A DNA stretch of 57,116 bases, the filler included, from Jimgerdemannia flammicorona (Eukaryota): assembly GCA_003990765.1 (NCBI GenBank). It is 3 parts of 3 records of this genome, joined end to end, with 100 filler letters (N's around TTAATTAATTAA, not from the genome) between each part and the next. Parts side by side here need not be neighbours in the genome. Positions count along the whole stretch, not along the records: positions 38,149 to 57,116 come from RBNJ01002061.1; 2 more parts are not named here. One strand, given 5' to 3'. Positions 232-54,966 of the stretch are shown in pieces. Positions within the stretch are counted from its first letter, which is position 1, and every line of letters starts with the position of its first letter. Under the pieces are notes generated by a model. It was not told the DNA's origin. It made no database searches and worked only from the letters and a program-made list of their open reading frames with translations. Position numbers and translations under genes: made by a program.

Positions 232-2217
232 TATAAGAGGGTTATTTGTTAGAGTAACTATTATATAGTTCTGGAAGGGGTTTCTGGAAGTTCTGGATAT
301 TCTGGAAGACTATTTTCTTAAGGTCAAGATCAATTTTATATAGAGTACATCCTCTTTACTTATTGATTTCAAGATCAGGTTGACATCTTAACCAAAGTCC
401 CTTTTTTGGACTAGTTCTGGATGTTCAGAATTTTTCATATTTCAGGAAGTTCAAGAAACTAAGAGCAGCTTAGTTGAATTGGCATATTGCTGCAGCCAAT
501 ACCCAATCAGGAAATTTTATGATAGGGTTAGGAGTGGGACCTAATGGAGAGTGAATTTACTTAAGAGTAGTTTGTGGGTTATTAAATAGATTTATTTGCT
601 ATTCATAATATTGCTATACTAAAAGTAGTTGTATGAAGGAATATTGTGGGGAAGCATTCAGAAGTATTCTTATTTGTTTGAGTCTGAGATTCTGAGATCT
701 GGAGAAGGGGGTATTTATACTAATAAGGGGCTATCTGGGCTATATTAAATATGGATGTAGTACTTAGTACCTTTGCTGAGTCAGAATGCAGTCACATAGT
801 ACAAGTGTGATCTGACATATCAAGAGACCATCTGACTGCTAAGTTATTTATAGATTTAGATGCCATCTGGGTAGTCCTCAATGATATCACTATCTATTAT
901 ATTATCTCTAACGAAGTAGTTATCTAGGAAGAGTTGTTTGTGGATTAACTCTCCTTGTTCACTGAGGTAATAATACATTGAGACTTCATCACCATCTCAC
1001 AGGATAGCATCATCTGTTTCATATACCAGGTAGGGTGTTGGTGGGTAAAGGAGGGATACATTATCTTTACCTTCATCAGATTTGCTATCTATATATCTCC
1101 TATAAGTTATAGCACTATGAGTTACTGAGTTATAGTGAGCTGGTGGCTGTGGTTCATATCATTTATACTCAGGTGGTGTAGTGGTTGGTTTGATCTCAAA
1201 GATTGTCTGATGGTATAGATTGTGTTCTCCAGTCTCTTCATTATGGTTGAAGTAATCAAAGATAAATGCAGATTGGTATTCATACCAATGGTCATTGTCC
1301 CAATAAGTTTCATAGGTGGTTATAAAATATTGTAAGTTCATTGGTAAGGTTGGCAGAGTCATCAGGGTTGGCAGGGATCCTTGGCTTGAGATCATGTTGA
1401 TATCTGAGAGATCATTGTCTTCTGCTTTGTCTTTATCAAATCAGATTATATTATAGATATCCTTCATAGTATATCTGACTTGGGGCATTTGTAGGATATA
1501 GTCATTGGGGTGTGGGAAGGTTCTGTCTGTGGTCTGAATGTACTTGAGATACTTGGGGTTGAGTTCTTATATTATATCATCTATTTGGCCATAGGACAGA
1601 GTAGCAACCATTTTAGTGATAGTGACTTAGAGGTGGGGGATTACTGTGCTATACTCATAGAAGGGTTCTCAATGTTTGTGGGTAATGAGTTTCTGGTGTT
1701 GAGACATCTGGATAATATCTATATCATAATAGTGTTCAACTATGTCTTCCAAGAGGCAGCCAATCTAATAGTAGCTTGAGATTTGTCTGATTTGATGGAC
1801 TTTGCTAAGCATGTTCAGAGCATTCTATTGGGCTTCTACAAAGTAGAGCAGTGCCAGACTATGGATATTCATGAGGGGCAGAGGGAGTGTGGCTTGGTTG
1901 ATAATGGCATTTCAAATATTAATATGAATATAGTTGTAGATCTCAGTGGTCATGTTTGTATATGTTTAAAAGTTGAGGTTGTTTGTTTGGTTTGTTTTGG
2001 TTCTCTGTTTTGACATGTTTCAATGCTTGGTATATATACATTTGGTCCTGATTGATAAGATTCTGTTTATGTGGATCTTGTGTCCCATAACTTTATATTG
2101 ACTCAGCTTTGTATACTGTGACTTTATATTGACTCAGCTTTATGATCTTGTATGTGATTTCTGGATTTGTTAAAAGATTGCATGTGATTTCTGTGGCTTA
2201 GAGGTTGTGTGCTTACA
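232..2217 (-). mobile_element. 3' LTR of Ty3/Gypsy element A (LTR family A, about 2.0 kb, decayed copy)
   Basis: Colinear with 38410-40451. Minus-strand termini TGTAAG...CTTATA (decayed CTTACA). Preceded on the minus strand by a polypurine tract. TATA-like GTATAAATACCCC at about 708-720. Confidence 0.9.
856..1953 (-). pseudogene. Decayed copy of the LTR-A U3 ORF
   Basis: ORF piece 1159..1395 (SSQGSLPTL...YETYWDNDHW...IKPTTTPPEYK) matches the 351-aa ORF at 39197..40252. Several stops look transition-derived. Confidence 0.85.
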
Positions 2218-2230
2218 ACTCTCCCCTTCT
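2218..2230 (-). promoter_or_regulatory. Polypurine tract of element A
   Basis: Minus strand reads AGAAGGGGAGAGT immediately before the LTR start TGTAAG. Confidence 0.8.
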
Positions 2231-5811: not shown

Positions 5812-5857
<46 letters not shown>

Positions 5858-7320: not shown

Positions 7321-7529
7321 AAATTCTTGAAATCCTTGTAACTTGCTGAAACTAGAAGCTATGGCTATGCCGAAAAGACCAGGCGGGACTCCTATACCTA
7401 AGGGATGAGGTACACCTGTCAGCACTCCTTGGAGCCTATATTTGTGGCCTCCAAAACTTGAGAAGCTCACCATCCTGGTGGCTTAGATGCGGAGCCAACT
7501 GTTTGGTCCGAGTGAAAGGTCCTGCTGAT

Positions 7530-9555: not shown

Positions 9556-10041
9556 TGTAACATAGTGGACACTTACTCTTGAAAGTATGTCAGATTTCTA
9601 TATCTTGAAAACTTGACTGTTCTGACTCTTGCAGAGTCCTTTGAGTTGCAGGGAAGGGGGGTGAGTTCAAAGTATATCTGCCCACAGGCTTACTAATTCC
9701 TTTGCTATCTCTTTGCTTTTGAAATATTTCAATCTGAGGCTTTATTCACTCTAAGATACTAGGTTATTTATACAAGTTTTGCTAGCTATAAGATGGCTAA
9801 GTTATGACTATGTTTCCTATGAGTCATTTCTTTCACAAGTGTTAAATCCTTGACATCTATTAAATCTTTGACAATCATCAAAGAGTTTAATATCTGTGAA
9901 TAGTTTAACATTTGTAAAAACTTTAACATTTGTGAAATAACTGCTATCTGGACTATACTATATTTGGGAATTGGATTCAGGTACCATGATCAAATATCTT
10001 ATTTCTCTAATTCATGTTACTAATTCAGATCAACTGTTATA
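9556..10041 (-). mobile_element. 5' LTR of element E (about 485 bp, no ORF)
   Basis: Plus strand TGTAACA...CTGTTATA. Its U5 end resembles that of LTR-B. Minus-strand TATA (about 9765-9775) and AATAAA (about 9740). Short tttaacatttgtga-type repeats in U3. Confidence 0.7.
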
Positions 10042-18974: not shown

Positions 18975-19074
18975 NNNNNNNNNNNNNNNNNNNNNNNNNN
19001 NNNNNNNNNNNNNNNNNNTTAATTAATTAANNNNNNNNNNNNNNNNNNNNNNNNNNNNNNNNNNNNNNNNNNNN
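18975..19074. other. Scaffold gap with TTAATTAATTAA linker
   Basis: N runs flank TTAATTAATTAA. The same structure occurs at 38049-38148. Confidence 0.98.
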
Positions 19075-19110
<36 letters not shown>

Positions 19111-20889
19111 TAGAGGATAAAGTGATAGGAATCTATAGTACCCAAGTTGACACTAGAAGTCCTTTTTGAGCAGGTCCTCATGGCTCTTCTGATGTCTTAG
19201 AATATTCTTTCCTTGACTAAGATATCTTATTGGTTCCTTGACCTTGAGGTTTGGTGAGCAGCAGGCATTTTGTTTGTAGTAAGTCTTTGAGCTATTTTGG
19301 AATTAGTGGTTCTTATTGGTTACTGCTACTGTAGTTCCTTGATCCTTCTTTTATATTTTTCAGGATGCTTGTACTGTAGTCACAATGACTCACAGTTGGT
19401 CATCATTGCTCATCTCATATACCATATGATCTCCTTGTGCTTCAATCTAGTGGCTTATGAGGAAAGGCTATCTCCTGTACTGATGTTATCATTCTGAGGT
19501 CACTATTATATCTTCCTCCTGAATAAGGATCTTCTTGAGTATTCTTATTTATTGGTCCAGTCTTGAAAAATTTACTGATTCCATAACCTCTAGCAAGGAG
19601 TCGAAAAGTGGTATTTATGGGCTGGCATCTTCTCTTTATATTTTGGCATGATGGTGAAGGATTGCTCTCTTCATATAGAGCAAGGGCCTGATTCTGATCT
19701 TGACCAATCAGTTGATGGTTCGAACTCCTCTGACTTTGAAAGTCTCATGGATGAGTAGTTGCCAGTGCTGTATCTCTTAGAGAATGGTCCAGACAGATAG
19801 CCTGCTGGTCACAGGATATGCTATTATGATTCATGGACTAGAACCTTGCAGGTGGTCATCATGTTTTACTTCTCTTATATAGGTTTATGGTACTTCTTGA
19901 GTCTGTTCCTATGTACTATAGTAGGCAGTATGGTTCTTGAGATTTTTCTAAGCCAGAAGGTAGTTCTCTTGATATCTTGCATGTAGAAGGGTCCTTCTCA
20001 TTTGGGCTCCAGTTTTCATGACCATGAGACTTCTACTATATTTCGATACAGTAGAACCTTTTCTCTGATTCAGATGGGTTCTAAGGCCTTGTAATTCTTT
20101 TCTGCATTCTTCCTTATTAGCACTTGTGACTTGATGATGTAATCTTCAGCCTTCTTCCTGATTTGGTGTAGTCTCCAGATTTCTGCATCAACCTATCTCC
20201 AAGTTAGATCTAGATTTGTGGCTGAGGTTCCATCAGAATCTTCTTCTCTGAAGAGCAGCTCCCTTGGGATAAAGTGTGTACTCTGTGATCATATGTCTCA
20301 TAGGACAGAGAGAGCAGTTGGGAGATAGTTATCCCAATTCTCATATGTCTCTGAGATCTTCGCTAGGATGTTCTTGAGGGTCTTATTGGTTCTTTCTATC
20401 TGTCCATTTCCTTGAGGGTGGTACACAGTGGTCTTGATGTACTAGATCTTGTATTTCTAATATATTATCTTGTAGAATCTATTAACAAATTCTGTGCTGT
20501 AGTCTGTTGTGATTTGCTTTGGTGTCTTGTAGCGGCAGATGATTTCTTGATGCAGAAAGTCAGCTATAGAGAGGGCATTGGCTTCTTGTAATACTCCTAC
20601 CTCTATCTATTTGATGAAGAGGTCTACAATAATTTTCTGATAGTATTACTGGTAGTGGTCCAATGATATCTATTACAATATGGTGGAAGGGGATAGGCTC
20701 AATTTTTGATGACCTAGGTACCTGGTCTTGCTGATCTTATTTCTGTTTTTAGCACTTGTCATACCCTTTGACAAATTAGTGCAGGTCTTCTTCCATCTTG
20801 GACCACCATATGGTTCTTCTTGCTTTGTCATATATATTAGTTCCTCCTAAGTGTCCTTGCTCATACATATACTTCCTTCATTACTTAAT

Positions 20890-20890
<1 letters not shown>

Positions 20891-20964
<74 letters not shown>

Positions 20965-20968
20965 GGAG
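20891..20968 (-). mobile_element. Minimal retroposed insertion (CTCCC plus poly-A) with target-site duplication
   Basis: TTACTTAATG (20881-20890) and TTACTTGATG (20969-20978) flank a T tract plus GGGAG inside the integrase region. Confidence 0.85.
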
Positions 20969-22659
20969 TTACTTGATGTTTCTTATATTTAGGTATTACT
21001 AGCTTTCCTCCTTTTCTGAGTGTAGTGTTGTCTAATTCAAACTGTTTCCAAGTCTGGTTGATGATGGTGATTGTCCAGGGTTTGAGGTGGTAGAGCATCT
21101 TCTGCTGCTTAAGATAGCTGATTAATCCATAGTATAGCTCCTTATTCATATTGAATAGTCTTGATGGGAGTGTTTTGGGGTATCCTTGAGAGTACATCAG
21201 CATTGGTGTTGGTCTTTCTTGAGCAGTGCTTGAGAGTACAGTCATACTCTTGTAGCCTGTAGATCCATCTGGTATATATTCCTTTGGGGTTCAGAGTGTG
21301 GAATAGCCAGGTAAGAGCAGAGTGGTCTGTTTGAATGGTGAAGTGTTTCCCAGCTAGGTAGTAGTGGAACTTGTCTACTGCCCAGACTACTGCTAAGCAT
21401 TCAAGCTTGCATGACTCATAGTTCTGTTCTGCTCCATGGGTATCTCAGCTTATATAGGAGATGATATATTCATGTCCATCTTTCTTCTGAGCTAGGACTG
21501 CTCCAAGTTCTATAGCACTCGCATCTGTCTGCAGGATGAATTCTAGATTCCAGTCTGATCTTCTGAGGATAGGTGCTTGGGTCAATCTGATCTTGAGTTC
21601 ATTGAAGGTTTCTTGATACTTCTTGGTCTATTCAAATTTGGTTTCCTTCTTCAGTAGCTCATAGATGGATACTGCAATATTAGAGTATCCTTTGATAAAC
21701 CTTCTGTAGTAGCTGGCCAGTCCAAGGAAGGCATGGACTTCTGTAGTTGTTCTGGGTCTTAGGTAGGCTGCAACAGTCTCAATCTTCATAAGATCTGTGT
21801 GGATTCTGATCTGATTGATGAGGTGTCCTAGGTAGGCAATTTCCTGGGCTGCAAACTTACATTTCTTAGGCTTGATGTAGAGGCCATGCTCTTTGAGCTT
21901 CTTGAGGGCTAGCTGTATGTGATTGACATGTTCCTGTGTAGTATTGCTGAAGATAATCACATCATCAACATAGACAAAGAGCTATTTTCCAATCTCATTG
22001 TTAAAGACTCTGTTCATCATTTGCTGAAAACTTGCTGGGGTATTGTATATTCCAAATGGCATTCGCAGATAGATATAGGTGGTATCAGGTGTAATGAAGG
22101 CTGATTTCTCACTGGCATCTTAAGTGAGACCAATCTGATGAAAGCCTGAGAACAGATCCAAGGTGGTATAGTATTTGGCTTCACTTCCAAGGGTGGTAAG
22201 GATTTCTTGAATATTTGGCAAGAGCTGCCTATCCTTCTTGGTGATGGCATTGAGCTTTCTGTAGTCAATACAGAGTCTTGATGCAAACTCTCCAGGTTTG
22301 CTTTCTTTCTTCAGAGCAAGAACAATGAGTGAGGTCCAGGGGCTGATAGCTTACTTGATGATTCTGGCTTCTTCTATTTCCTTGAGTTCTGCTTGCAGCC
22401 ATTCTCTATAGGTAGGTAGTATGGGTCTGGCTTTCTGGTAGATGGGCTTGGTATCACCAGTGTCAACTTCATAATAGTACTTGGGTTCTTGATTGTGAAT
22501 ATCTCTAAAGTCTGTAGCAAGTACTCCTTCATTCTGATACAGGATCTTGAAAAGTTATTCCTCCAGGGGAAAGTTTTCTCCAATGGTATATGTATGCTTG
22601 TTCTGGTCCTTGTCTTTCTTGTGCTCAAGTTTAGTAATCTTGATAGTAGTATAGGCTCC

Positions 22660-23076
22660 TCTTCCAGTAGATCCAAAGCCTTGTTCTCCTCTCTTGGTCT
22701 TAATGAGTTTGATGGCTTCTATGATCTTGGGCTTCTTGATTTTGTGGATCAGCATCTGGCCAATCCTGTCATACTTCTTGACTTCGAAGGGGGTGGTGTG
22801 GTTGTGATTTCTGACTATGAGGAAGATCTTATCAGTATAATCAGGGTCAATTACTCCTCCTTCAACTGAGATTTCGCTTCTGGCCAGACTGCTCCTGGTC
22901 TTGATAATTCCAGCATGGTTTTCTGGCAGCTTGACTCCAATTCCAGTGCCAAGTAGGGTAGTGGTCTGTGGTTCAAGGATAACATCTTGAATGCTGGCAA
23001 GGTCCATTTCTATAGCTCCTTCAGTCTTATATTCTGGGATCTTGGCTTCAGGATAAAACTTCTTGACCTTAAGGGT
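22660..23076 (-). CDS. dut: dUTPase domain between protease and RT of element D (part of a degenerate polyprotein)
   Basis: In ORF 22555..23367: GAIEMDL, RSSLA, GGVIDPDY, DRIGQM, RGEQGFGSTG, i.e. the five trimeric dUTPase motifs. Confidence 0.95.
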
Positions 23077-25281
23077 GATGTCTGATTCTTGTTCCTCCTC
23101 ATCATCACTGTCAACCTGAAGCTCTGGGGGCTGGTCATCTTCTTTGGCTTTTTTTTTTGCTTTGGCAGCTTCTTGCTTGTATTTCTGTTGGCAGATTTTT
23201 CTGACTTCACTGATATAGGACCAGCAGTCATTCAGGTGTTCTGAGCAGTATATCCTAGTACCATAGGGGCATCTTCCTTGAGGGGCATATCCATTGATGA
23301 TCTTATTGTACCACTGCTCATCTATGAGCTTGGGTGTCTTGTTCTTGTTCTTATTCACTGAGTACATGAAGACCTCTGTGTCCTCTTCATCTCCTTCCTC
23401 TATGTCTGGTAGGACTCCCTTGTGAATATTAATAGAGACTCATACCTTTCTTCCTCTATAGTTGATTTGCATCTTCTGAGCATTGAGGTCAATGATGGCC
23501 TTGGCCTTGTGAAGCCATTGGTTACCAATGAGGATGTCATAGTTGGTGGTACTTGTGATAATCACATCTACTGGGATAGTAGCTCCTCCTATCTTAATGG
23601 AGACTTCTCAGATTTTGCCAAGGAGGGTAGCTTATATACCATCTGCTATAATATAGACCATCTTGGTGGACTCTTCAATGTCCCAGCCTAGGCGGTCAAT
23701 TGCCTTCTTGCTCATGAGGTATCCTCCAGTATCAGTATCAATAATGGCATCAAAGATATAGTCTTCAATCTGATATAGAGTATAGGCTGATGTCTTGTGC
23801 TGGTCTTCAGATTCTTCACCTGAGTTCTCAGATTCTTTCTGTGTATTGTGAGCTTCTACAATCTTATACTCTTGATTCTTGGTAGTAGTTACAAGTCCTA
23901 CTCTCAACTGCTGTCTAAAGGTAGGGACTTCAGCTAGTTGTCCAAAAGTGGCATTGATCTTCTATTCCTTAAGGTCCTTGTAGATATCATACTAGTGGAT
24001 CTTGGTCTTGTGTAGCTTCTGTTCCTTCTTGCTTTCACTTTCTCCTGAGACTGGAGTAGTACTTTCAATAATTTGGCAGGTAGCTTCATCTAACTATATA
24101 TCTTGATCAATCTCCTCAGATTGGGTCTTGCTTTGAATAGTGATAGCTGGGGTCTTCTTTGGTCTTCCAACTGGCTTGCTGTTGCTCATCATAGGGCTTG
24201 GACCAGATTCTGATACCTTCAGCAACAGGGTAGAATTCAAGCTCCTCATAGTATTCTTCATCATCAGTATCACCAATCTCCTCAATGACTACTGTATTGG
24301 TTTGTTCTCTGGTTCTACTAGTATTGCTTGGTTGGGCTTTGCATCTTGTTTTGGTCATACAATTCTTTATATGTGGCCTTCTTCTCCACATCTGAAGCAT
24401 ATGATATTGTATTCTTCTATAGCAGCTGCAAATCTCTGTACTGGTCTCCTGTTGGTACTTTAGACTTCTCTAACAATATCACTAAGATGTGCAGTCATCT
24501 CAGTGAACTGCTTGGCAAGTTCTTCCACTGGGTCAGCTTTGGCTGTCTTGGGGGTAGGTAGGGTTGGTTGTCTGTTTACAACTGTGGCAGATATGATACT
24601 AGTTAGCTTTGATGACTCTATCTTGATACCAGTTATTTTCTCCATTGAGTGTTCAGCAGGGTATCTGGCAGTCTAATATCTCTGTACAAAGACCACTTTC
24701 TGATCAAGAGTCAGTGTAGCTGGGGTAGACTGGATTGCTAGGGCAATTCCAGAGTGAACTCTTTTGAGGAAGGTTGAATCTGCTATTTGTTCCTTAAGGC
24801 AGTCATTATAGCCAGCCAAGACAATCTGGTGACAGATTCAGATATAGAATGAGTTGGGATCTTCACTAAGTCCCTGGCAGATAGTATTGAGTTGATCCTT
24901 GAGAGCTTGCTTGATCTCTTCAGTATAATATATTGTTCTGAGGAAGGCCTTCATATTGACAAGTTTGGCTGTACCAGTATCAGCAATGGTGGCTACATTG
25001 AACTTATCTCTGGCAGGTCCTCTGAGGCTGACTGGTAGAAGGGCCAATTGAGCATCTATACTAAGGGCTCGTATGGTGGCGAATTGTTCAAAGTCTTCAA
25101 TGAAGGTCAGAATTGACTCTTCAGTAGTATATCTATAGAATGTAGGGAAATACATTTCCATCTTATCTTGAATTCTTGCAGGGGTGACTCTTGTAGTCAG
25201 GGTAGTTGTTATAGGGATTGTTCGTTTTTCAGATTAAAAGTGAGGTATTCATCTTGAATCACCAGCCAATAGGTACTAAGT

Positions 25282-26792
25282 TGTCATGTGGTGGTCACTG
25301 AGTCCTTCAAATATACCAGATTCTCTTCAAGGTATATCTTTTAGACTAACTCAAGTTTGTTATAAGCAAGTTCTTATTGGAGTGCCTTCCTAAGGTCTTA
25401 TAGTCCTCAAACTTCTTATCTTTAACTATCTTGTTATCTCTTAGATTGCTTGCAAGGAAGTGTGTATAAGTGAAACTAGAACTGACTTTATTTCAGAAGA
25501 AATAAGAGGGGTATTTATACAAAATATAATTCAATAGTTGCTAAGATATAAAGCTAAATATAAATTCCAATAACTAAAACTACTAAGTTCCAGAGTCAGC
25601 ACTGATGGTTGTACAGGTTCAGAATACTGGTATAATTCAGTATCATATCAGAATACCAGTGCTGAAATAATTTTGCATCACCTCAGAATGTCAGTACTAG
25701 TATTATCCAGTGTTACATCAAAATACTGGTACTGGCATTATTCAGTATAACAAAGAACTTAGAGCAGAAAGTTCAGGACCATGGGGGCTTTATCATCATC
25801 ATTATCACTAAAGAAGATGAGATCCGCAAATTCGTCATTTTCACATACTTCGATGTCATATAAGATGATATCATCACCAATGATGTCATCATGTTTGGTA
25901 GGGAAATTGGAGGCTCTCCAATCTAAGAGGTTCTCTTCTACAAAATAAGAAACAAATGTGGGGTCTTGGGGAGGTCTAACCTAGATGCTTGGGCCTTGGA
26001 ATACTGAGATCAATCCTTGCAGGAATTGGTCTGAGTTGTCCTGAAGGATGGGATGCCAGAAGTCTTCTACTTCATCACTATTGAGAGTAATAGTGGACTG
26101 GGCTTCTGTAGCCACCCTGGCTTCTAGTGCATTGATATGGTGGGATGATAGATCTCTGAAGTCTGAGACTCTAATATACTCTAAGTTAAAGATTGACCAT
26201 GGTGTATGCCTGAAGATCTGATAGATCTTCTTAACCATTCTTGTCTCATATATATCCATGGGAGTGGCATCTTGTAGCTCTTGAGGACTGGCCTGTAGGA
26301 ACTCCTGGCAGAGGAGGTTTTTTATTTCATACTTCTGCTATATTTGGAGACATTCAGTAGCAATGGTGATCCTTGTTTCCATTTCACAGTAGTAGAGAAT
26401 AAAGTGATAGGGATCTGCAGTACTCAGGTTGATACTAGGAGTTCTTCTTGAGTAAGTCCTCATGGCTCTTCTGATGTCTTGGAATATCCTTTCCTCAACT
26501 GAGATACCTTGGTAGTTTATTGACCTTGAGGTTTGGTGAGTGGCAGACATTTTATTTGTGGTAAGTCTTTGAGCTATTTTGGGATTGGTGGTTCTTGTTA
26601 ATTGCTACTACTGTAGTTCTTTGATTCTTCTTTTATATTCTTCAAGATACTTGTACTATAGTCACAATGACTCACAGTTGGTCATCATTGCTCATCTTAT
26701 ATGCCATATGATCTCCTTGTGCTCCGATCTGGTAGCTTGTGAGGAAAGGCTGTCTTCTGTACTAATGTCATCATTCTGAGGTCACTGTTATA
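25282..26792 (-). mobile_element. 5' LTR of element D (LTR-B) with decayed U3 ORF
   Basis: Reverse-complement match to 53413-54962. ORF pieces 26338..26550 and 25981..26259 match 53655-54496. Confidence 0.92.
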
Positions 26793-30518: not shown

Positions 30519-30649
30519 AATTCGGTGGGTCCTGGAGATTTGTAGATAAGTTGGTTGGCCTTGTGGAATATTTAATACCTTTCAAAATAATAAAAAGGTA
30601 AAAAACCCTAAGGACTCAGCCTGAAGTTTGCGGTCCAAGTAGGCAGTGG

Positions 30650-31295
30650 TCAGTGGGGTTGGCAGTGACAGTGGAGGGAGTGCACAATGTTTGTAGCCCT
30701 CCATCAGTAGCAAAAAGCAGCCCCAAGCTGCCAGTGCCCAGGTTGGTGAGTGGGTTGGCAGAGGGAGTATGCAAAATTTGTGGTCCTCTGCTGGCAGCAA
30801 GGGGCAGCCCCAAGCCACAAGTGTCCCAGTCAGAGGGGTTGGCAGAGGGAGTGTGCAAAACTTGTAGCCCTCTGCCAGCAGCAAGAGGTAGCCCCAAGCT
30901 GTCAGCACCTGGGTCAGTGGGCAGGGTTGGTCAGCAGGGTTGGTGGGTGTGAGATCAGTAGAGGGAGCACACAAAATTTGTAGCTCTCTGCCAGCAGCAA
31001 GGGACAGCCCTGAGCCACAAGTATCCAGGATGGATGGAGCAGGTAGAGGGAGCATACAAAATTTGCAGCCCTCTACCAGTAGTGAGGAGCAGCCCCAAGC
31101 TGTCAGCACCCAGGTCAGTGGGTAGGGTTGGTGGGTACAGGGTTGGTGAGGGAGTACATAAAATTTGTGGCCCTCCACCGGCAGCAAGGAGCAGCCCCAA
31201 GCCATAAGTGTCTGGGACAGGTGGGGCAGGCAGAGGGAGTATATAAAATTTGTGGCCCTCTGCTAGTAGCATAGGGGCAGCTCTAAGCTGCCAAG
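30650..31295. repeat. Seven copies of a roughly 55-bp GC-rich core with variable spacers, between the two converging hAT genes
   Basis: Core GAGGGAGYRYRCAAAATTTGTRGCCCTCTGCCAGCAGCAAGGRGCAGCCCCAAGC at about 30674, 30761, 30845, 30961, 31046, 31148 and 31233. Confidence 0.9.
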
Positions 31296-38048: not shown

Positions 38049-38148
38049 NNNNNNNNNNNNNNNNNNNNNNNNNNNNNNNNNNNNNNNNNNNNTTAATTAA
38101 TTAANNNNNNNNNNNNNNNNNNNNNNNNNNNNNNNNNNNNNNNNNNNN
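38049..38148. other. Scaffold gap with TTAATTAATTAA linker
   Basis: N runs flank the linker. Confidence 0.98.
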
Positions 38149-38409: not shown

Positions 38410-40451
38410 TGTAAGAGGGTTACTTTTTAGGGTAACCGTTACATAGTTCTAGAAGGGTTTTCTGGATATTCTGGATGTTCTGGAAGACCATTTTCTTATG
38501 GTCAAGATCAATTTCATATGGAGTACATCCTCTATGCTTATTGATTTCAAGATTCAGGTTGACGTCTCAACCAAAGTCCTTTTTCGGACTAGTTCTGGAT
38601 GTTCAGGATTTTCTGTATTTCAGGAAGTTCAAGAAACTAAGACCAGCTTAGTTGAATTGGCGTATCGCTACAGACAATAACCAATTAGGAAATTTCGTGA
38701 CAGGGTTAGGAGTAGGACCTAACAGGGAGCAGATTTACTTAAGAGTGGTTTTGTGAGTTATGGAATAGGTTTATTTGCTATTCATGATATTGCTATACTA
38801 GGAGTATTTGTGTGAAGGGATATTGTGGGGAAGTATTCAGAAATATTCTTGTGTGTTCAAGTCTGTTCAAGTCTGAGATTCTGAGGTCTGGGAGAGGGGG
38901 TATTTATACTAGTGAGGGGCTATCTGGACTATGCTGAATATGGATGTATCACTAAGTGCTTTGCTGAGTCAGAATGCAGTCATGTAGTACAAGTATAATC
39001 TGACATATCAAGAGATCATCTGACTGCCGAGTCAGTTTACAGTCATGTCGTACAAGGCTAATCTAACTATATTATGACTGCTAGGTTATTTATGGGTTTA
39101 GGTGCTGTCTGGATAATCTTCGATGACATCACCATCGATTGCATTATCTCTGATGAAGTAGTCATCTAGGAATAATGGTTTGTGAATTACTTCTCCTTAT
39201 TCGCTGAGGTAATAATACATTGGGACTTCGTCTCCGTCCCACAGGATAGCATTGTCTGTCTTGTAGACTGGATAGGGTGTTGGTGGGCGAAGGATGGGTA
39301 TATTGTCTTCTCTTTTGTCAGATTCACTGTCTGCGTACCTTCTATAGATTACAGTACTATGAGTTGCAGGATTGTAGTAAGCTGGCGGCTGTGGTTCATG
39401 TCGCTTGTACTCAGGTGGTGGAGTGGTTGGTTCAATCTTGAGAGTTGTCTGGAGGTACAGGTTGTGTTCTCCAGTCTCTTCATTGTAGTTGAAGTAATCG
39501 GGGGTGAATGCAGGTTGGTATTTGTGCCAGTGGTCATTGTCCCAATAAGTCTCATATGCAGTTATGAACTGTTGCAAGTTTATCAGCAAGTTTGGCGATG
39601 TGATCAGGGTTGGTAGAGATCCTTGGCTAGAGGTCATGTTGGCATCAGAGGGATCATTGTCTTCTGCTTTATCTTCGTCGAAGTGGATTATATCGTAGAC
39701 GTCCTTCATAGTATATCCAACTTGAGACATTTGCAGGATATGGTCATCAGGGTGCGGGAAGGTTCTGTCTGTGGTCTGGACGTATTCGAGGTACTTGTGG
39801 TTGAGTTCTTGTATCATGTCATCGATTTGGCTGTAGGACAGGGTAGCAACCATTTCACTAGTAGTGACTCGGAGGCGGAGAATAAAGGTTTTGTACTCAT
39901 AGAAGAGTTCTCGATGTTTGCGGGTGATGAGCTTCTGGTGTTGAGACATCTGGGTAATGTCTGTATCATGGTGGTGTTCGACCATATCTTCCAGGAGGCG
40001 GCCAATCTGGTAGTAGCTTGAGATTTGTCTGATTCGGTGGGCCTCGCTAAGCATGTTCAGGGCATTCCATCGGGCTTCCATGAAGTAAAGGGGTGCCAGG
40101 CTATGGATATTCATGAGGGGCAGAGGGGGTGTGGCTCGGTTGACAATGGCATTCCAAATGTCAGTGCGGATACAGTTATAGATCTCAGTGGTTATGGTTG
40201 TGTGTTTGGATGTTGTGGTTGTTGTTTGTTTTGGTTCTCTGATTTGACGCATCTCGGTGTTTGGTATATATGCATTTGGTCCTGATTGGTAAGATTCTGT
40301 TTGTGTAAATCTTGTATTCTGTGACTTCGTATTGACTCAGCTTTGTGCACTGTGACTTTGGTTTGACTCAGCTTCATGATCAAGCAGGTGATTTCCAGAT
40401 TTGTTCAGAGGTCACGTGTAATTTCAATGGCTTGGAGGTTGTGCACTTACA
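38410..40451 (-). mobile_element. 5' LTR of a younger family-A element (2042 bp)
   Basis: TGTAAG...CTTACA termini, followed by the PBS. Homologous to 232-2217. Inserted in a LINE. Confidence 0.93.
39197..40252 (-). CDS. LTR-A U3-encoded protein of unknown function (351 aa; ancestrally about 384 aa)
   Basis: Uninterrupted ORF lying wholly inside the LTR, upstream of the TATA box at about 38900. The stop at 39197 is CAA in the other copy, and the frame then stays open to 39098. Confidence 0.8.
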   Translation of the reverse strand: MRQIREPKQTTTTTSKHTTITTEIYNCIRTDIWNAIVNRATPPLPLMNIHSLAPLYFMEARWNALNMLSEAHRIRQISSYYQIGRLLEDMVEHHHDTDITQMSQHQKLITRKHRELFYEYKTFILRLRVTTSEMVATLSYSQIDDMIQELNHKYLEYVQTTDRTFPHPDDHILQMSQVGYTMKDVYDIIHFDEDKAEDNDPSDANMTSSQGSLPTLITSPNLLINLQQFITAYETYWDNDHWHKYQPAFTPDYFNYNEETGEHNLYLQTTLKIEPTTPPPEYKRHEPQPPAYYNPATHSTVIYRRYADSESDKREDNIPILRPPTPYPVYKTDNAILWDGDEVPMYYYLSE

Positions 40452-43400
40452 CAAAGAGAGTAGGTCACCCAAGGACCCTCAAGAGGAGGTTCGCATCTCC
40501 TACACCTTCTGCAACAGAGGCACCCATCTCCCTCCTTATAGTTCAGCTGCTCTCTTCAACCACCAGACTCACAAGCAGTATAACCTCTTAGGGAAATCTA
40601 CAAGGCCAAGACCTCTCCTAATCACTGGTGTCACAAGAGTATCCCAACTGATCTGGGACCTCTGCCCTGCCCAAATCCAATCCCTAGCCACCTTTATCAG
40701 CCTCTTCACCACCCAAGCTAGGAAGTCAAGGTAGTAGGCCACATACTACAGCTTGGGGAACCAGTATACATTCAGAATTGCTACCTGCCCTGCTAGAGAG
40801 ATATGGCAGCCTCCTCAACCTCGAAGGGCCTCTCCCTAAGCAGCCACCCTGTTCTCCCACCATACTTGCGGCAGGACAGAGCCATATACAGAGAGGAAGA
40901 TGCCCAGATACTATACCACCTCACTAATAGGGACAATTGTTCCAATGATATCCCCACCCATCAGCCCATTCCCCAGCACCATAGTCTCGCACTTATGCCA
41001 GTTGAGCTTCACCCCAGAGTGATCCTCATCCATTCCACTGCCTCCTTAATTGCCTTGACATCTGCCACAGACCCAAGGCCAACTGCCATATCATCCGCAA
41101 ATGCTCCCACCTTCCACACTATGCCATAGATAGAGAGCCCTACCACCTTCCAGCGAATTCTATCTATCAAAGGTTCCAAAGAGAGAGCATAAAGGATAGG
41201 GGACAGGGGGTCTCCCTAAGGAACCTCTCTTTCCAAGGTAAACACCAGACTATAGTGACCATTATACATCAGTGCCACCCGACTGCCTTCTAGCAGACTC
41301 AATATAGAAGCCTGAAATTCTGGGGGAATACCAATATGATCCAACACCTTGCCCAGCCAAACCTACCAGACCCAGTTATAGACCTTCTCCTGGTCCAAGA
41401 AAACCAATCTTCCATCCAGACCACAAGCCCAGGCCCCTTTAATAGCATCATGTCTTCTAACCATACTCATCAAACCCTATCATAGGCCTTCCTCTAGTTC
41501 AAAAAAATCAGTTATTTATTTACTCTAGTAGTGTAAGCTCCTCTAATAATACTATACACCTAGGCTGTCTTATCTCTGATCAGACATCTCTCTACAAATT
41601 CTCTCTGCTCAGCCCCCAATACTTGCTGAGTCACTCCTTACAGCCTAGTTACTAGTATCTTTATAACCAGCTTATGATCTATATCCAGAAGTATAATTAG
41701 TCTCTAGTTTTTCCACTCCTCTCTCCTCCTCTTATTCTTAAACAATAGAGTCACAAGACTCAAGTACTGCTCCCCAATCTACTCTCCTGAGCTAATGATC
41801 TCATTTTACATCTCTGTCATCTTCTTCAGAATTAACTTGACTTCTGTCATCTTCTTCTAAAAATCCTATGGTAAGCTATCTTTCTCTGATGTTATCCTCA
41901 AGCTTATTATTATCAGTACTTACTAAATCTCATCTCCTCAGACAGAAGTGTCAAGATCACCTAAGCTCTCTGCTGGATCAGAATACTAGTTCTCCAGGTA
42001 CTTTTCAATATCCAGCACTCCTATTCCTCTTTTCTCCTTACTCCACAATTACCTCTACTATTTGCTCAACTGGTCCAAAATCTTTAGTGTCCCAACAACC
42101 AACTCCTCTGTCTCATCTAACACTCTCTTATCTCTATCATACTCTTCTCATCTGTAGAAGTCAAGATAAAAACTTTGTTAGCCTATCCCCCTCCTTTAAT
42201 CTCTGCCACCTCAGCTAGGCTATTATGCTCTTTATCTATAGGTCTTCCTTCTGCCTCAGCAACTCCTTCAACTTCTCCACCTCCAGCCCAATCTGCTGGA
42301 TCCTCTAATCTCTCTCCTCACTATTATTCAATAGATCTGTCTATAATACCAACAATCTTACCAACCTCTGAGAGGCCCACTTCACTTGCTTTCTCCTCTG
42401 AGCACCACACATTCTTCCTGCCTCTCCTTAGTACTATTGTGTATCTGATTTTAATCTCCTCTAGTGATCCCCAATTGCTAGCTCTTTTACTCTCTAGCCA
42501 AGTATTCTAGAGCTAATATCTATTATTTATATATCCTATAAGGAGACCTCTCTTAGTAATAAGGTATTTAGATATCAAAGTTCTTTAGATATCAACTCTC
42601 TAGTATTCTGCAGTCAACATCTAGTCAATCCTTAAGTTCAACTCTACCACCCAATGAGTATATACTCTATGATCTCCCATCTAAGTCTCCCAGTATCCAC
42701 TAATGAACTCAGACATTTAACTTTTTCCCAGGCTTTCATACTACTACTTCTATCAGCCATCTCTCTTTCCCCATCCCTTCTCATCATATATCATATTAAA
42801 GTCTCTACCTAAATAGTCAATCTCTTCTTCCACCAATACTCTAGACTCTTGTAGCCCTTGAATTCATTCCACTCTCTCCTCTCTTTCTACTGGACAATAA
42901 TATGACTCAACAGTCAAGGGTCTCTAGTCTGGTCTCTTCCAAACTTCTCATACTATCCTGCTCTCTCAATGTTTAATATCCTTAATATCTCTCTTATCCT
43001 TTCTAACCATAATGCCCACACACTTATACTAAATAGCCACACTACTCTATTTCTTTATTTAGTTCACTTTTTATCACATCTAACATCTTATAATAGAAAT
43101 AAATCCACATTCAGCCCCTTTAGCTAGTAGAAGATATTTCTATATCTCACTACTTCTCATAGCCCATTGATATTTAAAGAGAAGATTCTAGTTATACTAT
43201 ATATTGAATAATATTTCTTGAAGAACAACTGCCTACTCTATAGTTCCATACTCACTACATTGCCAGCAATATCTAGGTTCTTCTCTATCTTAAGCTCATC
43301 TGCCTCTCTCTGCTAAGTCTCTAATACCTCTAAGATCTCTTGACAATCTATACCATCCACAGCTTCCATATCTATCTGGTACTTCTCATATACTATCTGT

Positions 43401-52200: not shown

Positions 52201-53654
52201 CCCGACGGTATTCTGATATGTGTATCCAAAAAAATTTTACCAAGCCACGCAAAAATTTATTTAGGTCAAACGTGTCATCAGGGAATAGTCAACGATCCTA
52301 TCATGAGTACTAAATAGTGTCACTGTCAGCCTTGTCTCGATTACGGAGGTTTGCTGTGTGCACTTTTCCGCCCTTGCAGTCTCATCCTTGCTTTGGATGA
52401 AGCCGGAGCGACACTAGTGACCAATTGGCCTAATAGTGTTTCATAGGCCCTGGGTATTCACGAAACGTGAGTCCTCCATCTTGTTTGTTCACCTATTTCA
52501 TCACAGTCAGCATCGTACTAACTTTGGAACACCACATTAGTGACCAAACTTTGACTCGTAGCTGTGTGATTGTCTCATCTGAACATAACATATAGTCTAT
52601 TGTTGAATAGCTATCTTATGGGAGGATGTTTAGCATTGGAATTTGTGGGATTGCTTTGGATACCCAATTGCCCCCAACATTTCCAAATGGCGATGCCTCG
52701 CTAACGACAACCGGAACGCATTTGCAAGACTAGTTTTCGCCCCTGCGGAACATCTCTTGCCGATGTGCTTTGGCAAGGTTGGCTTGACATAGTTTGGCAT
52801 ATTTGCCTGCTCTCTTGTCTTCTTATGCATCGACATTTGTGGCTTTTTGCTGCTATGGAGATGCCGCCAATTCCGAGAGCTACATATCCATGACTTCCTT
52901 CCACAAACACATTTTCAAAGTTAAGTCATTTCATTTTACCTTTGTGAAATTAATTATTACTCTTAGCCTAACTAATTATTAAAATTCTGTAATGGCGTCA
53001 GTTGCTTCCTGTACCGAGTGGCATCAAAAAAGTCTGCCGCGAGTATTGCCCGATTTCGGTTATTGATGTACAATTTCTTTTTATACTATACATTACTTCA
53101 AAGATTGTCTGTGTACTTGTGATAAGTTAACATATAGCCAACGAGCATGTATTGTAGCAAATGATTATGATGTAATTATCTGATATATATATATTTCACA
53201 ATTGCATGGTAATCAACTATCTTTATTATGATTAAAGTTAAGGTTATTTTCTTTAAAGGCAATATGTCAATGGAAGTAGTGATTGGTTTTGAGAAGTCTT
53301 TCTTTGTATTTCCTTTAAAGGATCTCTTACAGATATTTTGGAAGTAGCAAATCATGAGTAGGAATTAGCAAAGCAGTGCTTCAATTCAGATAATATATAT
53401 CTCTATATATGTTGTAACGGTGACCCCAGAATGATGTCATCAGCACAGGAGACAGCCTTTCTTTACAAGCCACCAGATCAGAGTACAAGAAGATCATACG
53501 GCATATGAGATGAGCAATGATAACCAACTGTGAGTCATTGTGACCACAGCACAAGCATTCTAAAGAATATAAAAGAAGGATCAAGGAACCGCAGTAGCAG
53601 CAACCAACAAGAACCATCAATCCCAAAATAGCTCAAAGACTTATCACAAACAAA

Positions 53655-54496
53655 ATGCCTGCTGCCTGCCAAACCTCAAGGTCAAGGAATCATCAAGGTA
53701 TCTCGGTCGAGGAAAGGATGTTCCAAGACATCAGAAGAGCCATGAGGACCCACTCAAGAAGGACTCCTAGTGTCAACCTGAGTACTGCAGACCCCTACCA
53801 CTTCATTCTCTACCGTTGCAAAATGGAAACAAGGATCACTATTGCCACCGAATACCTTCAAATGTGGCAGGAGTACAAAATAGGAAACCTCCTCTGCCGG
53901 GAGTTCCCACAGGCCAGCCCTCAAGAGCTACAAGATGCCACTCCCATAGACCTACATGAGGCAAGGACAGCAAAGAAGATCCATCAGATCTTCAGGCATA
54001 TACTATGGTTGATCTCCAACTTGGAGTATGTTAGAGTCTCAGACTTCAGAGACCTGTCATCCCCCATATCAATGCACTAGAAGCCAGGGTAGCTACAGAA
54101 GCCCAGTCCACCATCACCCTCAACAGTGAAGAAGTAGAAGACTTCTGGCACCCTATCCTTCAAGACAACCCAGACCAATTCCTGCAAGGATTGATCTCAG
54201 TATTCCAAGGCCCAAGCATCCAGGTTAGATCTCCCCAAGACCCCACATTTGTCTCCTATTTTGTGGAAGAGAATCTCATAGACTGGAGAGCTCCAGACCT
54301 TGTTCCCGATTTTCCCACCACACTCAAACGTGATGACGTCATTGATGATGTCATCCTGCGTGACATCAAAGTATGCAAAAATGACAAAGTACGCGAGATG
54401 CGCAATCTACATGACAAATTCGTGGACCTCATCTCCTTCAGTGATGATGATGATGATGATGATGAAGCTCCCATAATCCTGAACTTTCTGCTCTAA
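53655..54496 (+). pseudogene. LTR-B U3-encoded protein (about 280 aa after repairing a 1-nt deletion near 54063)
   Basis: ORFs 53655..54080 and 54191..54496 join if TCATCCCCCAT is restored to TCATCCCACCAT, as in the copy at about 26140. Confidence 0.85.
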
Positions 54497-54504
54497 AAGT
54501 TCTT

Positions 54505-54640
54505 TGTTACACTGGATAATGCCAGCACCGGTATTCTTATGTAACACTGGATAATGCCAGCACCGGTATTCTGAGGTGACGCGAAATTGTTCCAGCACCG
54601 GCATTTTGATGTAATACTAAATAATGCCAGCCCTGGAACT
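54505..54640. repeat. Roughly 35-bp tandem repeats in LTR-B U3 between ORF and TATA (enhancer-like)
   Basis: ACACTGGATAATGCCAGCACCGGTATTCT twice, plus two degenerate copies. Confidence 0.75.
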
Positions 54641-54966
54641 TAGTAGTTTTAGTTATTGGAATTTATATTTAGCCTTATATCTTAGCAACCATTGAATTAT
54701 ATTTTGTATAAATATCTCTCTTATTTCCTCTGAAATAAAGTCAGTCAATTCAGTATATTCAGTCAACTCAGTACAATACACACACTTCCTTGCAAGCAAT
54801 CTAAGAGATAACAAGACAGTTAAAGATAAGAAGTTTGAGGACTATAAGATCTTGGGAAGGCACTCCAATAAGAACTTGCTTATAACAACTTGAGTTAGTC
54901 TAAGAGATACACCTTGAAGAGAATCTGGCATATTTGAAGGACTTAGCGACCACTATGTGACAATGT

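Follow-up and report, generated by a model that had tools for sequence, protein, structure and literature searches.

The window, by which we mean the whole 57,116-nt stretch of Jimgerdemannia flammicorona DNA that was analysed, carries a solo LTR of a Ty3-type retrotransposon family (family B) with a protein-coding frame inside it. Its parts are as follows.

53409..53412, left copy of the TSD, ATGT, 4 bp
53413..54962, plus strand, family B solo LTR of 1550 bp with TG..CA ends
53568..53575, plus strand, upstream TATA box TATAAAAG, 87 nt 5' of the ATG of the ORF
53655..54496, plus strand, family B U3 ORF, 280 codons if one frameshift is read through
54061..54065, plus strand, C-run with a 1-nt deletion, the sole ORF defect of the solo copy
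54505..54631, plus strand, 35-bp unit in 3.6 tandem copies, between the ORF stop and the downstream TATA box
54707..54714, plus strand, downstream TATA box TATAAATA, from which the genomic RNA is presumed to be transcribed
54734..54739, plus strand, AATAAA, a putative polyadenylation signal
54963..54966, right copy of the TSD, ATGT, 4 bp

The LTR starts with TGTAAC and ends with GTGACA, which together with the flanking ATGT gives the TG..CA termini and short TSD of a Ty3/Metaviridae solo LTR, and matching direct repeats enclose the PBS, gag-PR-RT-RNase H and PPT of a second family member in the window, element D. The boundaries at 53413 and 54962 with ATGT on either flank had been proposed in a first-pass annotation of this DNA, as had an ORF of about 280 aa with one 1-nt deletion located 5' of a TATA box, and both descriptions held (ATG at 53655, stop at 54496, TATAAATA at 54707). 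A second TATA box, at 53568, precedes the ORF. The spacer between the ORF stop and the downstream TATA box measures 210 nt and contains the 35-bp repeats, which appear enhancer-like, and the U3/R border is presumed to lie ~25-35 nt past TATAAATA.

Further copies of this LTR are carried by element D.

19106-26792, element D (family B), with PR, dUTPase, RT, RNase H, PBS and PPT
25282..26792, minus strand, 5' LTR of element D, with an ORF copy at 26550..25759 that holds 2 in-frame stops
19511-19520, PPT AGGAGGAAGA of element D, just upstream of the 3' LTR
19106..19510, minus strand, start of the 3' LTR of element D, interrupted after ~400 bp by an assembly gap of poly-T/N

The solo LTR was 81.6% identical to the 5' LTR of element D (26790..25282; 1584 columns) and 85.4% identical to the start of its 3' LTR (19503..19106; 398 columns). 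The first-pass annotation placed the ORF in each of the two LTRs of element D; the 5' LTR does hold it whole, with its two stops, whereas the 3' LTR retains only the first ~57 codons before the gap, with stops that include one at codon 14. The dUTPase lies at 22558-23439.

The family B ORF was then assessed as a coding sequence. It consists of two overlapping stop-free frames (53598-54080 and 54035-54496), which join into 135 + 1 + 144 codons from the ATG at 53655, and the break between them is a 1-nt deletion in the C-run relative to the element D copy. Part of the stretch was found in 20 of the 22 public runs listed, and half of the sampled words in none of them. The base absent from the solo copy was present in most contigs of runs X8 and X10 (835/838 and 5.57/5.57 by depth) and was also seen in X6 (7.0/14.8) and X1 (38.8/193.5). 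Between the solo copy and the 5' LTR copy of element D, the four length differences (12, 3, 30 and 6 nt) were all multiples of 3, and substitutions at codon positions 3/1/2 numbered 60/35/21 (chi-square P=4e-5). Synonymous changes made up 54 of 112, compared with the one third expected with transitions alone (P=0.001), and, whichever base class was considered, position 2 did not change faster than position 3. The dN/dS ratio against the decayed element D copy was 0.23 (NG86). Variant sites in public contigs were distributed 18/8/3 over positions 3/1/2 (29 ORF rows among the best 40 of 252 rows). Five skips of 65-84 nt in public contigs were considered as splicing and set aside as copy variation, each occurring in a single contig of 80% likeness.

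Intact relatives of the family B protein were recovered from metagenome protein sets at 28-79% identity to P0006 (271 aa). They include P0005, a 247-aa protein 79% identical to P0006 and 88% identical to the N-terminal half of the window ORF, as well as P0007, P0009 (342 aa) and P0010, and open frames were kept in relatives as low as 28-47% identity. A scan of metagenome contigs yielded 218 pattern matches that reduced to one locus, L001, whose open frame of 291 codons encodes a 43%-identical relative. Scans of viral contigs with both families gave 3 and 127 pattern matches and no confirmed relative, and tblastn of nine family proteins against the window returned nothing significant beyond the known LTR copies. 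As judged from this pattern of substitution and conservation, the family B U3 ORF is a real protein gene on which purifying selection acted during the active life of the family; the first-pass reading had been made to depend on such selection among LTR-B copies, and the dN/dS ratio and the third-position excess bear that selection out. In L001, the stop codon is followed at once by a purine run and TGTAA, resembling a PPT-LTR junction, and the gene in that lineage may be internal instead of LTR-borne. By eye, the initial 100 nt of L001 had resembled the pol end of element D, but neither blastn nor tblastx gave a match and the resemblance was dropped.

The motif pattern had been said to resemble that of an expanded family of uncharacterised Glomeromycota proteins. 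This attribution found no support: in 8 clusters, all 10 members inspected belonged to metagenome assemblies of ENA or JGI/IMG, where they lie on contigs of 0.9-4.8 kb with no genome accession and with either no name or the label 'hypothetical protein'. Relatives in TE-masked genomes may be hidden from protein sets. In the ESM Atlas, P0006 and P0009 had the same top match, a 244-aa cluster with 61 members (scores 0.83 and 0.88), which is probably the family itself, and neither query returned a named relative. The family B protein is helical in its N-terminal half, carries the conserved motif W-x-P-[IL]-L-x-D-N-P-D-Q, and closes with an acidic tail, probably disordered, whose last residues are LNFLL. 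Pfam searches at E up to 1 gave no match for either half of the family B ORF or for eight of nine family members, the remaining one having a weak, unrelated match (PF20637, E=0.13). PDB sequence profiles returned nothing for family B, and Foldseek with its AlphaFold2 model (mean pLDDT 47.1) returned nothing at E up to 0.001, a result of little weight given the poor quality of that model.

The other Ty3 lineage of the window, the chromovirus-type family A, also carries an ORF in its 2-kb LTR.

38412..40451, minus strand, family A 5' LTR, followed by a TGGTAGCAG-type PBS
40270-40265, minus strand, TATATA, 75 nt before the probable ATG
40195 to ~39098, minus strand, family A ORF from likely start to stop, with an in-frame TAA at 39199-39197
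near 38905, minus strand, downstream TATAAATA of family A
234..2217, minus strand, family A 3' LTR, 79.6% identical to the other copy, its ORF with many stops

The likely start codon at 40195 is ATA here and ATG in copy A2 and in P0012, which together with P0004 represents the intact family A fragments. Differences in the family A ORF fell at codon positions 3/1/2 in the proportion 109/65/40, 99 of 201 changes were synonymous, and dN/dS was 0.19; by these measures the family A U3 ORF is also coding, with a selection signal like that of family B. Both LTRs show one layout, in which a TATA box is followed after 75-87 nt by the ATG, then by the ORF, a ~200-nt spacer, TATAAATA and AATAAA. The family A 3' LTR is preceded by the PPT AGAAGGGGAGAG and adjoined by a chromodomain at 2648-2878. 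The lineage contrast drawn earlier stands, namely a chromodomain and a TGGTAGCAG-type PBS in family A versus a dUTPase, a different PBS and no chromodomain match in element D. The stretch 234-9800, taken as 'element A', is a composite whose gag-PR-PBS part and 5' LTR end are D-like and not A-like. That D-like LTR end, at 9556, has only its last 41 nt in common with LTR-B; a search upstream of it detected no relative of the ORF.

We next consider whether the two proteins are related, as a manual alignment in the first-pass annotation had suggested. Every motif string of that alignment was present where it had been placed, and the remark that the ORF DNA is not obviously alignable was matched by a window self-BLAST without any A-B match. 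BLASTP of the A against the B protein gave E=6.2. With hhalign, the two aligned over 120 columns in the same register as the manual alignment, at P=0.017, which narrowly avoids a non-significant result, and with an hhalign probability of just 2.7%; thinner profiles gave E=0.12-0.15. Column shuffles reached the observed hhalign score in 2 of 247 global and 0 of 145 local trials, under a null that is optimistic; past this alignment lies a second colinear match, which is weak. The acidic tails have the exact 7-mer RDDVIDD in common (P=0.0025-0.0055), in low-complexity sequence where convergence is easy. A Fisher combination, in support of A-B homology, gave about 8e-4. Reciprocal HMM searches were not significant: the B profile found the A ORF at E=1.7, though as the top non-family match among 947 ORFs, and the A profile found a B piece at E=3.9. 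Against 1.84 billion proteins, the B profile had 6 matches, with no A-type protein among them. The best Pfam match of the A protein was GrpE at E=0.11, below its cut-off, and its best PDB profile match had E=0.31. AlphaFold2 models had mean pLDDT values of 47.1 (B) and 31.0 (A), and the order of their helices is compatible with the register, in models of too low confidence for a comparison of folds.

Of the proposed shared domain, the common layout, the hhalign P value and the 7-mer thus speak in favour, and the hhalign probability and the reciprocal searches speak against. Homology is suggestive and not proven; from the sequences we regard the family A protein as probably a very distant homologue. 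The gene would then have been inherited from a common ancestor, or would have moved with an LTR module by template switching. There is a real possibility that the two ORFs are unrelated, each lineage having acquired or evolved its own, with the matches due to chance and convergent acidic motifs. The poor BLASTP, hhalign and hmmsearch scores, the absence of A-type proteins from the B-profile matches, the unequal lengths (280 vs ~365 aa) and the position of RDDVIDD in an acidic low-complexity tail are all consistent with independent origins, but the rarity of shuffles that reach the score, the 7-mer (P ~0.004), the second colinear match, and the shared cassette layout and TATA-ATG spacing argue for common descent.

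The upstream TATA box bears on how the gene is expressed. The TATAAAAG box is kept in all three window copies of LTR-B and in L001, where it lies at 296-303, 80 nt before the L001 ATG. The leader of family B matches that of L001 (blastn E=4e-5), with the 20-30 nt before the ATG conserved, and the remaining non-coding DNA of the two cannot be aligned. Because TATAAAAG and the leader are conserved in a relative only 43% identical, the family B gene probably has its own promoter at the upstream TATA box. With such a promoter, a solo LTR would keep a complete cassette, and the conserved box makes it more plausible, as conjectured in the first-pass annotation, that solo LTRs would seed the gene across the genome. 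None of the sequencing runs listed is recorded as RNA; two marked 'RNA?' are guesses, and their contigs come without starts, ends or strand.

In the mechanism that we propose, the cassette would run from the TATA box at 53568 through the 87-nt leader, the 280-codon ORF and the 210-nt spacer to the TATA box of the element and the poly(A) signal. Transcription of the gene would start at its own upstream promoter and its RNA would end at the poly(A) signal of the LTR, so that each LTR, solo copies included, would be a self-contained expression unit; the genomic RNA would also carry, at its 3' end, the gene copy of the 3' LTR. Taken as a whole, the account that we favour on balance is of a solo LTR from a dUTPase-bearing Ty3 element with a complete small gene in its U3 under its own promoter, and with a probably homologous cassette in family A. 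Beyond the first-pass annotation, it adds the second conserved TATA box and leader, hence the probable own promoter, and the same layout and selection signal in LTR-A.

An unlikely alternative is that the gene has no promoter of its own and is expressed, like sag, from spliced or read-through RNA of the 5' LTR, so that the solo copy is silent unless a neighbour transcribes it. Such RNA is the known expression route of the U3-resident MMTV ORF, the U3 of the 3' LTR always lies within the genomic RNA, and AG dinucleotides occur 5' of the ATG; yet the leader and a TATAAAAG box 80-87 nt 5' of the ATG have been kept at 43% protein identity when the adjacent non-coding DNA has not, and in family A a TATA box is found about as far from the start. 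It is decidedly improbable that the upstream TATA box, despite its conservation, is the only genomic promoter, with a U3 of ~190 bp and the ORF in a long R/U5 as the first cistron ahead of gag. Towards the 3' end of the LTR, both families have a second canonical TATAAATA and then AATAAA; gag, with an ORF of 280 codons ahead of it, would be expected to be translated poorly; and an R region longer than 1 kb is not known. Finally, that the frame is open by chance in LTR DNA that does not code, as the lack of a known domain, the low AlphaFold confidence and the frameshift of the window copy might suggest, is hardly credible, being already contradicted by frames that stay open at 28-47% identity, the third-position excess, the dN/dS of 0.23 and the in-frame indels.

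The favoured reading, of a U3-resident gene with its own promoter, has a parallel in MMTV sag, an ORF of ~300 codons wholly inside the U3 of an LTR >1.2 kb; being wholly in U3, sag occurs twice in each provirus and persists in LTR remnants. MMTV is a mammalian betaretrovirus, whereas the solo LTR here is that of a Ty3-type retrotransposon, and no sequence relation was found between the family B ORF and the Sag family (Pfam, E up to 1). Sag is a membrane protein; the family B ORF differs from sag in being preceded by a conserved TATA box and in encoding an acidic, helical protein with no sign of a membrane protein. Foamy virus tas/bet and HIV nef encode regulatory or adaptor proteins at the 3' end, partly in U3, and foamy viruses express tas/bet from a second promoter. 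These genes start internally and merely overlap U3, whereas the family B cassette lies entirely within the LTR, and no sequence similarity of the family B protein to the foamy virus or HIV accessory genes was found. Our working model gives the family B protein a role like that of Tas, a transactivator that has an acidic tail and acts on its own LTR. Purely from composition and layout, we tentatively suggest that the LTR protein could act in the nucleus as a regulator or adaptor and promote the expression of its own LTR, either as a transactivator or as an anti-silencing factor. The acidic, hydrophobic-studded tail would be the effector part and the helical domain the targeting part.

Most of the papers listed on LTR-located ORFs concern MMTV. 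Lineage-specific extra ORFs (aORF/ORF3), mostly of unknown function, are described in LTR retrotransposons of plants and bdelloid rotifers (PMC7264820, PMC5408684); in rotifers, one ORF type is common to unrelated retroelement lineages, some with a dUTPase (PMC5408684). These extra ORFs lie between the LTRs, either ahead of gag or in the interval separating pol from the 3' LTR, whereas the family B ORF lies within the LTR, and the accessible text of the plant aORF review has no wording that places an ORF in, within or inside an LTR (PMC7264820). In Tf1/Tf2 and Tosmo of fission yeasts, according to the sections available, U3 and leader/gag diverge or swap as modules and pol stays similar, mosaics that the authors explain by strand transfer during reverse transcription (PMC10085805). 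Through such module swapping, an LTR-borne gene could pass from one lineage to another; no ORF in the U3 regions of these elements is reported in those sections.

The usual view is that LTRs are control regions without coding content and that a solo LTR is an inert scar or a stray promoter. It is possible, if rather speculative on sequence evidence, that an autonomous gene, with a promoter of its own and a shared poly(A) signal, lies wholly in the Ty3-type LTRs of this soil organism as one ancient, fast-evolving family that moves between pol lineages with LTR/leader modules, its solo copies spreading a trans-acting regulator (a transactivator or anti-silencing factor) of all like LTRs. Since recombination to a solo LTR spares the cassette, expressible copies of the regulator would then litter the genome. 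More generally, if a selected protein gene is housed wholly in the LTR, LTR-LTR recombination would lose the element yet leave its accessory gene, and the copy number of the gene would rise and fall with that of solo LTRs. Repeat masking would systematically conceal the protein family from annotation, which would account for all the relatives found being on unannotated metagenome contigs. Should the A and B proteins be homologous, the gene would be older than the split between the chromodomain and dUTPase lineages, or mobile between them, and would provide a handle on modular retroelement evolution. The family B gene is also a candidate for a retrotransposon-encoded regulator outside retroviruses.

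A BLAST search of the window with the solo LTR identified two further copies of this LTR (LTR-B), both on the minus strand, and 137 stop-to-stop ORFs of at least 70 aa were scanned with Pfam. The following family-B features were obtained:

53413-54962: solo LTR of family B, starting with TGTAAC, ending with GTGACA, with ATGT at both flanks
26790..25282, minus strand: LTR-B copy, 81.6% identity over 1584 aligned columns (BLAST)
19503..19106, minus strand: LTR-B copy, 85.4% identity over 398 columns (BLAST)
22558-23439: dUTPase (Pfam E=3.7e-26), ORF fragment between the element-D LTR copies
21631-21981 and 22123-22350: RVT_1 (Pfam), ORF fragments between the same copies
21145-21444: RT_RNaseH (Pfam), ORF fragment between the same copies

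The purine tract AGGAGGAAGA adjoins the lower LTR-B copy (19503..19106), and the primer-binding-type sequence ACTTAGTACCTATTGGCTGG adjoins the upper one (26790..25282). Together with the LTR copies and Pfam domains, these therefore identify 19106-26792 as a decayed full-length Ty3-type element (element D) and 53413-54962 as a solo LTR from the same family. Element D's 3' LTR breaks off ~400 bp in, at a poly-T run and the N gaps at 18975-19074. Two pairs of 44-N gaps (18975-19074 and 38049-38148) each adjoin an LTR, the poly-T run preceding the first pair. Both the 3' LTR of D and the family-A internal region are truncated by these gaps, so some 'missing' parts are assembly artefacts.

The solo LTR contains two overlapping stop-free frames (53598-54080 and 54035-54496), the first giving 135 residues from ATG 53655 and the second 144 residues from 54062, with a stop at 54494-54496. 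The flanking features were:

53568-53575: TATAAAAG, solo LTR, 87 nt upstream of the ATG
54505-54631: tandem repeat, 35-bp unit, 3.6 copies, downstream of the LTR-B ORF
54707-54714: TATAAATA, solo LTR, 3' of the 35-bp tandem repeat
54734-54739: AATAAA, solo LTR, after TATAAATA

Alignment with the element-D 5' LTR showed that one base is absent from the C-run 54061-54065 of the solo copy. When contigs from four public runs were aligned on the solo LTR, the extra base was found in 835/838 depth units in run X8, 5.57/5.57 in X10, 7.0/14.8 in X6 and 38.8/193.5 in X1, which marks the frameshift as a defect in certain copies rather than a family-wide property. The ORF copy in the element-D 5' LTR (D5 copy, 26550..25759) is free of the frameshift, has two in-frame stops and shows four length differences from the solo ORF (12, 3, 30 and 6 nt). 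The first-pass annotation described the solo LTR, its ORF and the TATA position correctly, and erred in the state of the element-D copies: it placed the ORF in both D LTRs, but the D5 copy is interrupted and only the first ~57 codons are visible in the 3' LTR, with a stop at codon 14.

The solo and D5 ORFs showed 116 differences, distributed 60/35/21 over codon positions 3/1/2 (chi-square P=4e-5). Because C>T and G>A changes predominate in this genome, rates were also compared per base class, and for A, C and T the rate was lowest at position 2 and highest at position 3. Nei-Gojobori counting gave 54 synonymous and 58 non-synonymous differences (dN/dS 0.23, one of the two copies, D5, being decayed), and the synonymous share (54/112) exceeded the approximately one third expected under transitions only (binomial P=0.001). 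Among the best 40 of 252 variant sites in the public contigs, 29 lay inside the ORF, at 18/8/3 for positions 3/1/2 (P=0.002). The substitution pattern (codon positions, dN/dS and synonymous excess) therefore shows that the LTR-B ORF has evolved as coding sequence, which puts its coding status on a firmer footing than in the first-pass annotation.

A word-indexed protein search yielded two open relatives of the N-terminal half among 74 candidates; the database proteins P0005 (247 aa) and P0006 (271 aa) are 88% and 74% identical, respectively, to this half of the window B ORF. The family-B profile, searched against 1.84 billion representative proteins, gave six matches at E<=0.001, five of them relatives: P0005, P0007 (214 aa), P0008 (138 aa), P0009 (342 aa) and P0010 (200 aa, E=4e-10). 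The sixth, P0011, was discarded as a chance match of repetitive sequence. Identities of the relatives to P0006 ranged from 79% down to 28%, and an uninterrupted 291-codon frame, 43% identical, is present on the 1535-bp metagenome contig L001. Soil metagenome runs contain the LTR-B family in abundance: in run X1, 1971 contigs align at a likeness of at least 80%. The suggestion of an expanded family of Glomeromycota proteins was unsupported: all 10 members of the 8 protein clusters examined, nameless or 'hypothetical protein', came from ENA or JGI/IMG assemblies (contigs of 0.9-4.8 kb, accession absent).

Pfam returned nothing at E=1 for either ORF half or the family members, except a weak ATG5_HBR match (E=0.13) in 1/9 members, and the family-B profile had no match among PDB sequences. 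The AlphaFold2 model from the 9-row alignment (mean pLDDT 47) predicted helices at 18-31, 52-83, 89-94, 100-113, 117-122, 128-132 and 136-149, with low confidence in the C-terminal half, and a Foldseek search of this model against PDB gave none at E<=0.001. Conserved in the B alignment were the N-terminal helical region, the block W-x-P-[IL]-L-x-D-N-P-D-Q-[FW]-L-Q, an acidic tail dotted with hydrophobic residues, and the C-terminal end ...LNF[LT].

The octamer TATAAAAG was present in 3/3 LTR-B copies of the window and recurred in L001 at 296-303, 80 nt upstream of the ATG. The only non-coding DNA aligned between L001 and the window by blastn was the leader, consisting of ~20 nt before the ATG plus the first few codons (L001 355-395, 85-93% identity, E=4e-5). 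We read this conservation as functional, because neutral DNA should be unalignable at 43% protein identity, and the gene probably has its own promoter. Transcripts from this upstream promoter would cross the spacer and then use the LTR poly(A) signal. The ORF's own conserved promoter-like site is a new element beyond the first-pass annotation. The L001 stop codon is directly followed by AAGGAGGGAGGAT and TGTAATAAG (a purine run plus TGTAA; 1249-1275), which resemble the boundary between PPT and LTR start in elements A and D. If this is a PPT-LTR junction, the gene would be internal in that lineage, just before the PPT, and a PPT shift would be the step moving the cassette into U3; this placement rests on one 1.5-kb contig. 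Counting against the internal-gene reading, the 284 nt 3' of the stop contain short near-tandem repeats, as in the solo-LTR spacer. A 33-nt motif occurs twice in L001: one copy (170-202) precedes the TATA box of the ORF by 95 nt, and the other is at 1481-1513.

Family A and the adjoining region comprised the following features:

40451..38412, minus strand: LTR-A copy, 5' LTR, then PBS-like TGGTAGCAGCAG
2217..234, minus strand: LTR-A copy, 3' LTR, preceded by AGAAGGGGAGAG
2648-2878: chromodomain (Pfam E=1.7e-11), inward of the 3' LTR-A
4892-5269: RT fragment (Pfam), inward of the 3' LTR-A
6114-7349: 9-bp tandem repeat array, ~1.2 kb, at the junction of D-like gag-PR and A-type RT-chromodomain fragments

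The two LTR-A copies are 79.6% identical over 2050 columns. TGGTAGCAGCAG matches 9 nt of what we take to be the PBS expected for initiator tRNA-Met; 40451..38412 is therefore the 5' LTR, the internal part of its element being lost at the N gap 38049-38148, and 2217..234 is the 3' LTR. The LTR-A ORF (P0001) runs past an in-frame TAA (39199-39197), at which codon the other copy reads CAA, to a stop near 39098. It likely starts at 40195, since the 19 codons from the first ATG (40252) are out of frame between the copies (6- and 2-nt indels) and the database fragment P0012 (90% identical) begins at the next Met position; at 40195 this copy has ATA where the other has ATG. From there the ORF extends ~365 codons, with TATATA (40270-40265) 75 nt upstream, TATAAATA ~190 nt 3' of the stop codon, and AATAAA beyond it; by this order, the layout is the same as that of LTR-B. 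ORF differences between the LTR-A copies were 109/65/40 at codon positions 3/1/2, with 99 synonymous and 102 non-synonymous (dN/dS 0.19), and the selection signals are similar to those of the LTR-B ORF. Two intact fragments, P0004 (66%) and P0012, cover the C-terminal 247 aa and N-terminal 128 aa of the A protein, respectively.

The A and B proteins had been proposed as homologous from a manual alignment. BLASTP of P0001 gave E=6.2 against the B N-terminal half, in that same register, and E of at least 6 against the C-terminal half. The A ORF was the top non-family match of the family-B HMM among 947 window ORFs (E=1.7), the family-A HMM reached a B piece at E=3.9 only, and A-like proteins made up 0/6 of the family-B profile matches in the 1.84-billion-protein search. 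With hhalign, E was 0.15 for 3 vs 4 sequences and 0.12 for 3 vs 8; the 4-row A alignment against the 9-row B alignment scored 24.8 (P=E=0.017, but a probability of 2.7%), in the proposed register (A 54-176 paired to B 23-147). This score was reached by 2/247 global column shuffles of the A alignment (mean 14.5, sd 2.8) and 0/145 shuffles within 12-column windows (maximum 21.1), and the reversed A alignment scored 19.3. hhalign also returned a weak second alignment (E=0.33), colinear with the first. The acidic tails have the exact 7-mer RDDVIDD in common (P0004 vs the solo copy and P0005); when columns were shuffled at each of three block sizes, a longest common word of at least 7 arose in 5, 8 and 11 of 2000 shuffles. 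The combined P for the two main tests was ~8e-4, assuming independence, with both nulls generous and the 7-mer in low-complexity sequence. At mean pLDDT of 47 (B) and 31 (A, AlphaFold), only the helix order of the two models is comparable; it is consistent with the register, which is no proof. We consider it somewhat probable that A and B are distant homologues, with the result below the usual standard for declaring a family.

The contrast drawn between the lineages was upheld for the chromodomain and Met-type PBS of A and the dUTPase of D, but not throughout 234-9800. Its gag-PR part (9555-7527) has 64.6% DNA and 50-58% protein identity to element D, whereas its RT-to-integrase part has only 32-44% protein identity; the PBS ACTTGGTGCCCATTGGCTGG at 9555 and the adjoining LTR end ...CCACTATGTTACA resemble family B/D, not A. 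By these comparisons 234-9800 is not a single element: at the 6114-7349 array either two truncated elements abut or the element is a recombinant, and family A proper in the window is thus limited to the two LTRs, the PBS and the RT-chromodomain part. The 6114-7349 array is open in several frames, and its minus strand reads as collagen-like Gly-X-Y (Pfam Collagen E=1.9e-14). The D-like gag-PR fragment (7486-9800) carries a separate PBS at 9555, plus the end of an LTR of a third type ('LTR-C'), with TATAAATA near 9770; LTR-C and LTR-B have only the last 41 nt in common. Upstream of the LTR-C end (10-16 kb) the G+C content is 26-30%, and ORF relatives were not detected in that DNA.

Compared with the younger LTR copies (53413-54962, 38412-40451), the older ones (25282-26792, 234-2217) show mainly C>T and G>A changes, affecting 58% of CpG, 28-32% of CpA, 19-25% of CpC and 5-12% of CpT sites, consistent with deamination of the methylation type, possibly together with a RIP-like component. 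Elsewhere, a repeated element occurs as copy pairs 28856-30515/33908-35556, 31585-31965/36059-36439 and 33538-33913/36843-36446 (inverted), 70-79% identical to each other; its ORFs had no Pfam match, and 30638-31293 within it is G+C-rich and internally repetitive. A 950-bp inverted repeat (40494-41443 vs 49222-48273, 65% identity) encloses a region whose GC skew is very strong and switches sign, from -0.54 at 42-44 kb to +0.46 at 46-48 kb.

In fission-yeast Tf and Tosmo elements, the U3 and leader/gag modules can differ while pol is the same, for which the authors invoke strand transfer (PMC10085805). By analogy, a gene borne on an LTR could pass from one lineage to another by such a route; the window alone is compatible with either inheritance or exchange. 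Bdelloid rotifer elements have ORF3 types common to unrelated retroelement lineages (PMC5408684), a precedent for sharing between lineages, not for LTR residence. A plant-focused review of additional ORFs in LTR retrotransposons never uses the phrasing 'in/within/inside the LTR' (PMC7264820). Among the matches listed, literature on LTR-resident ORFs mostly concerned sag, the mouse mammary tumour virus ORF, and the full-text searches, which covered non-subscription literature, found no Ty3-type retrotransposon described as carrying a gene within the LTR. The feature is an LTR-resident accessory gene in a Ty3-type retrotransposon, a kind of gene that, to our knowledge, has so far been known only from retroviruses.
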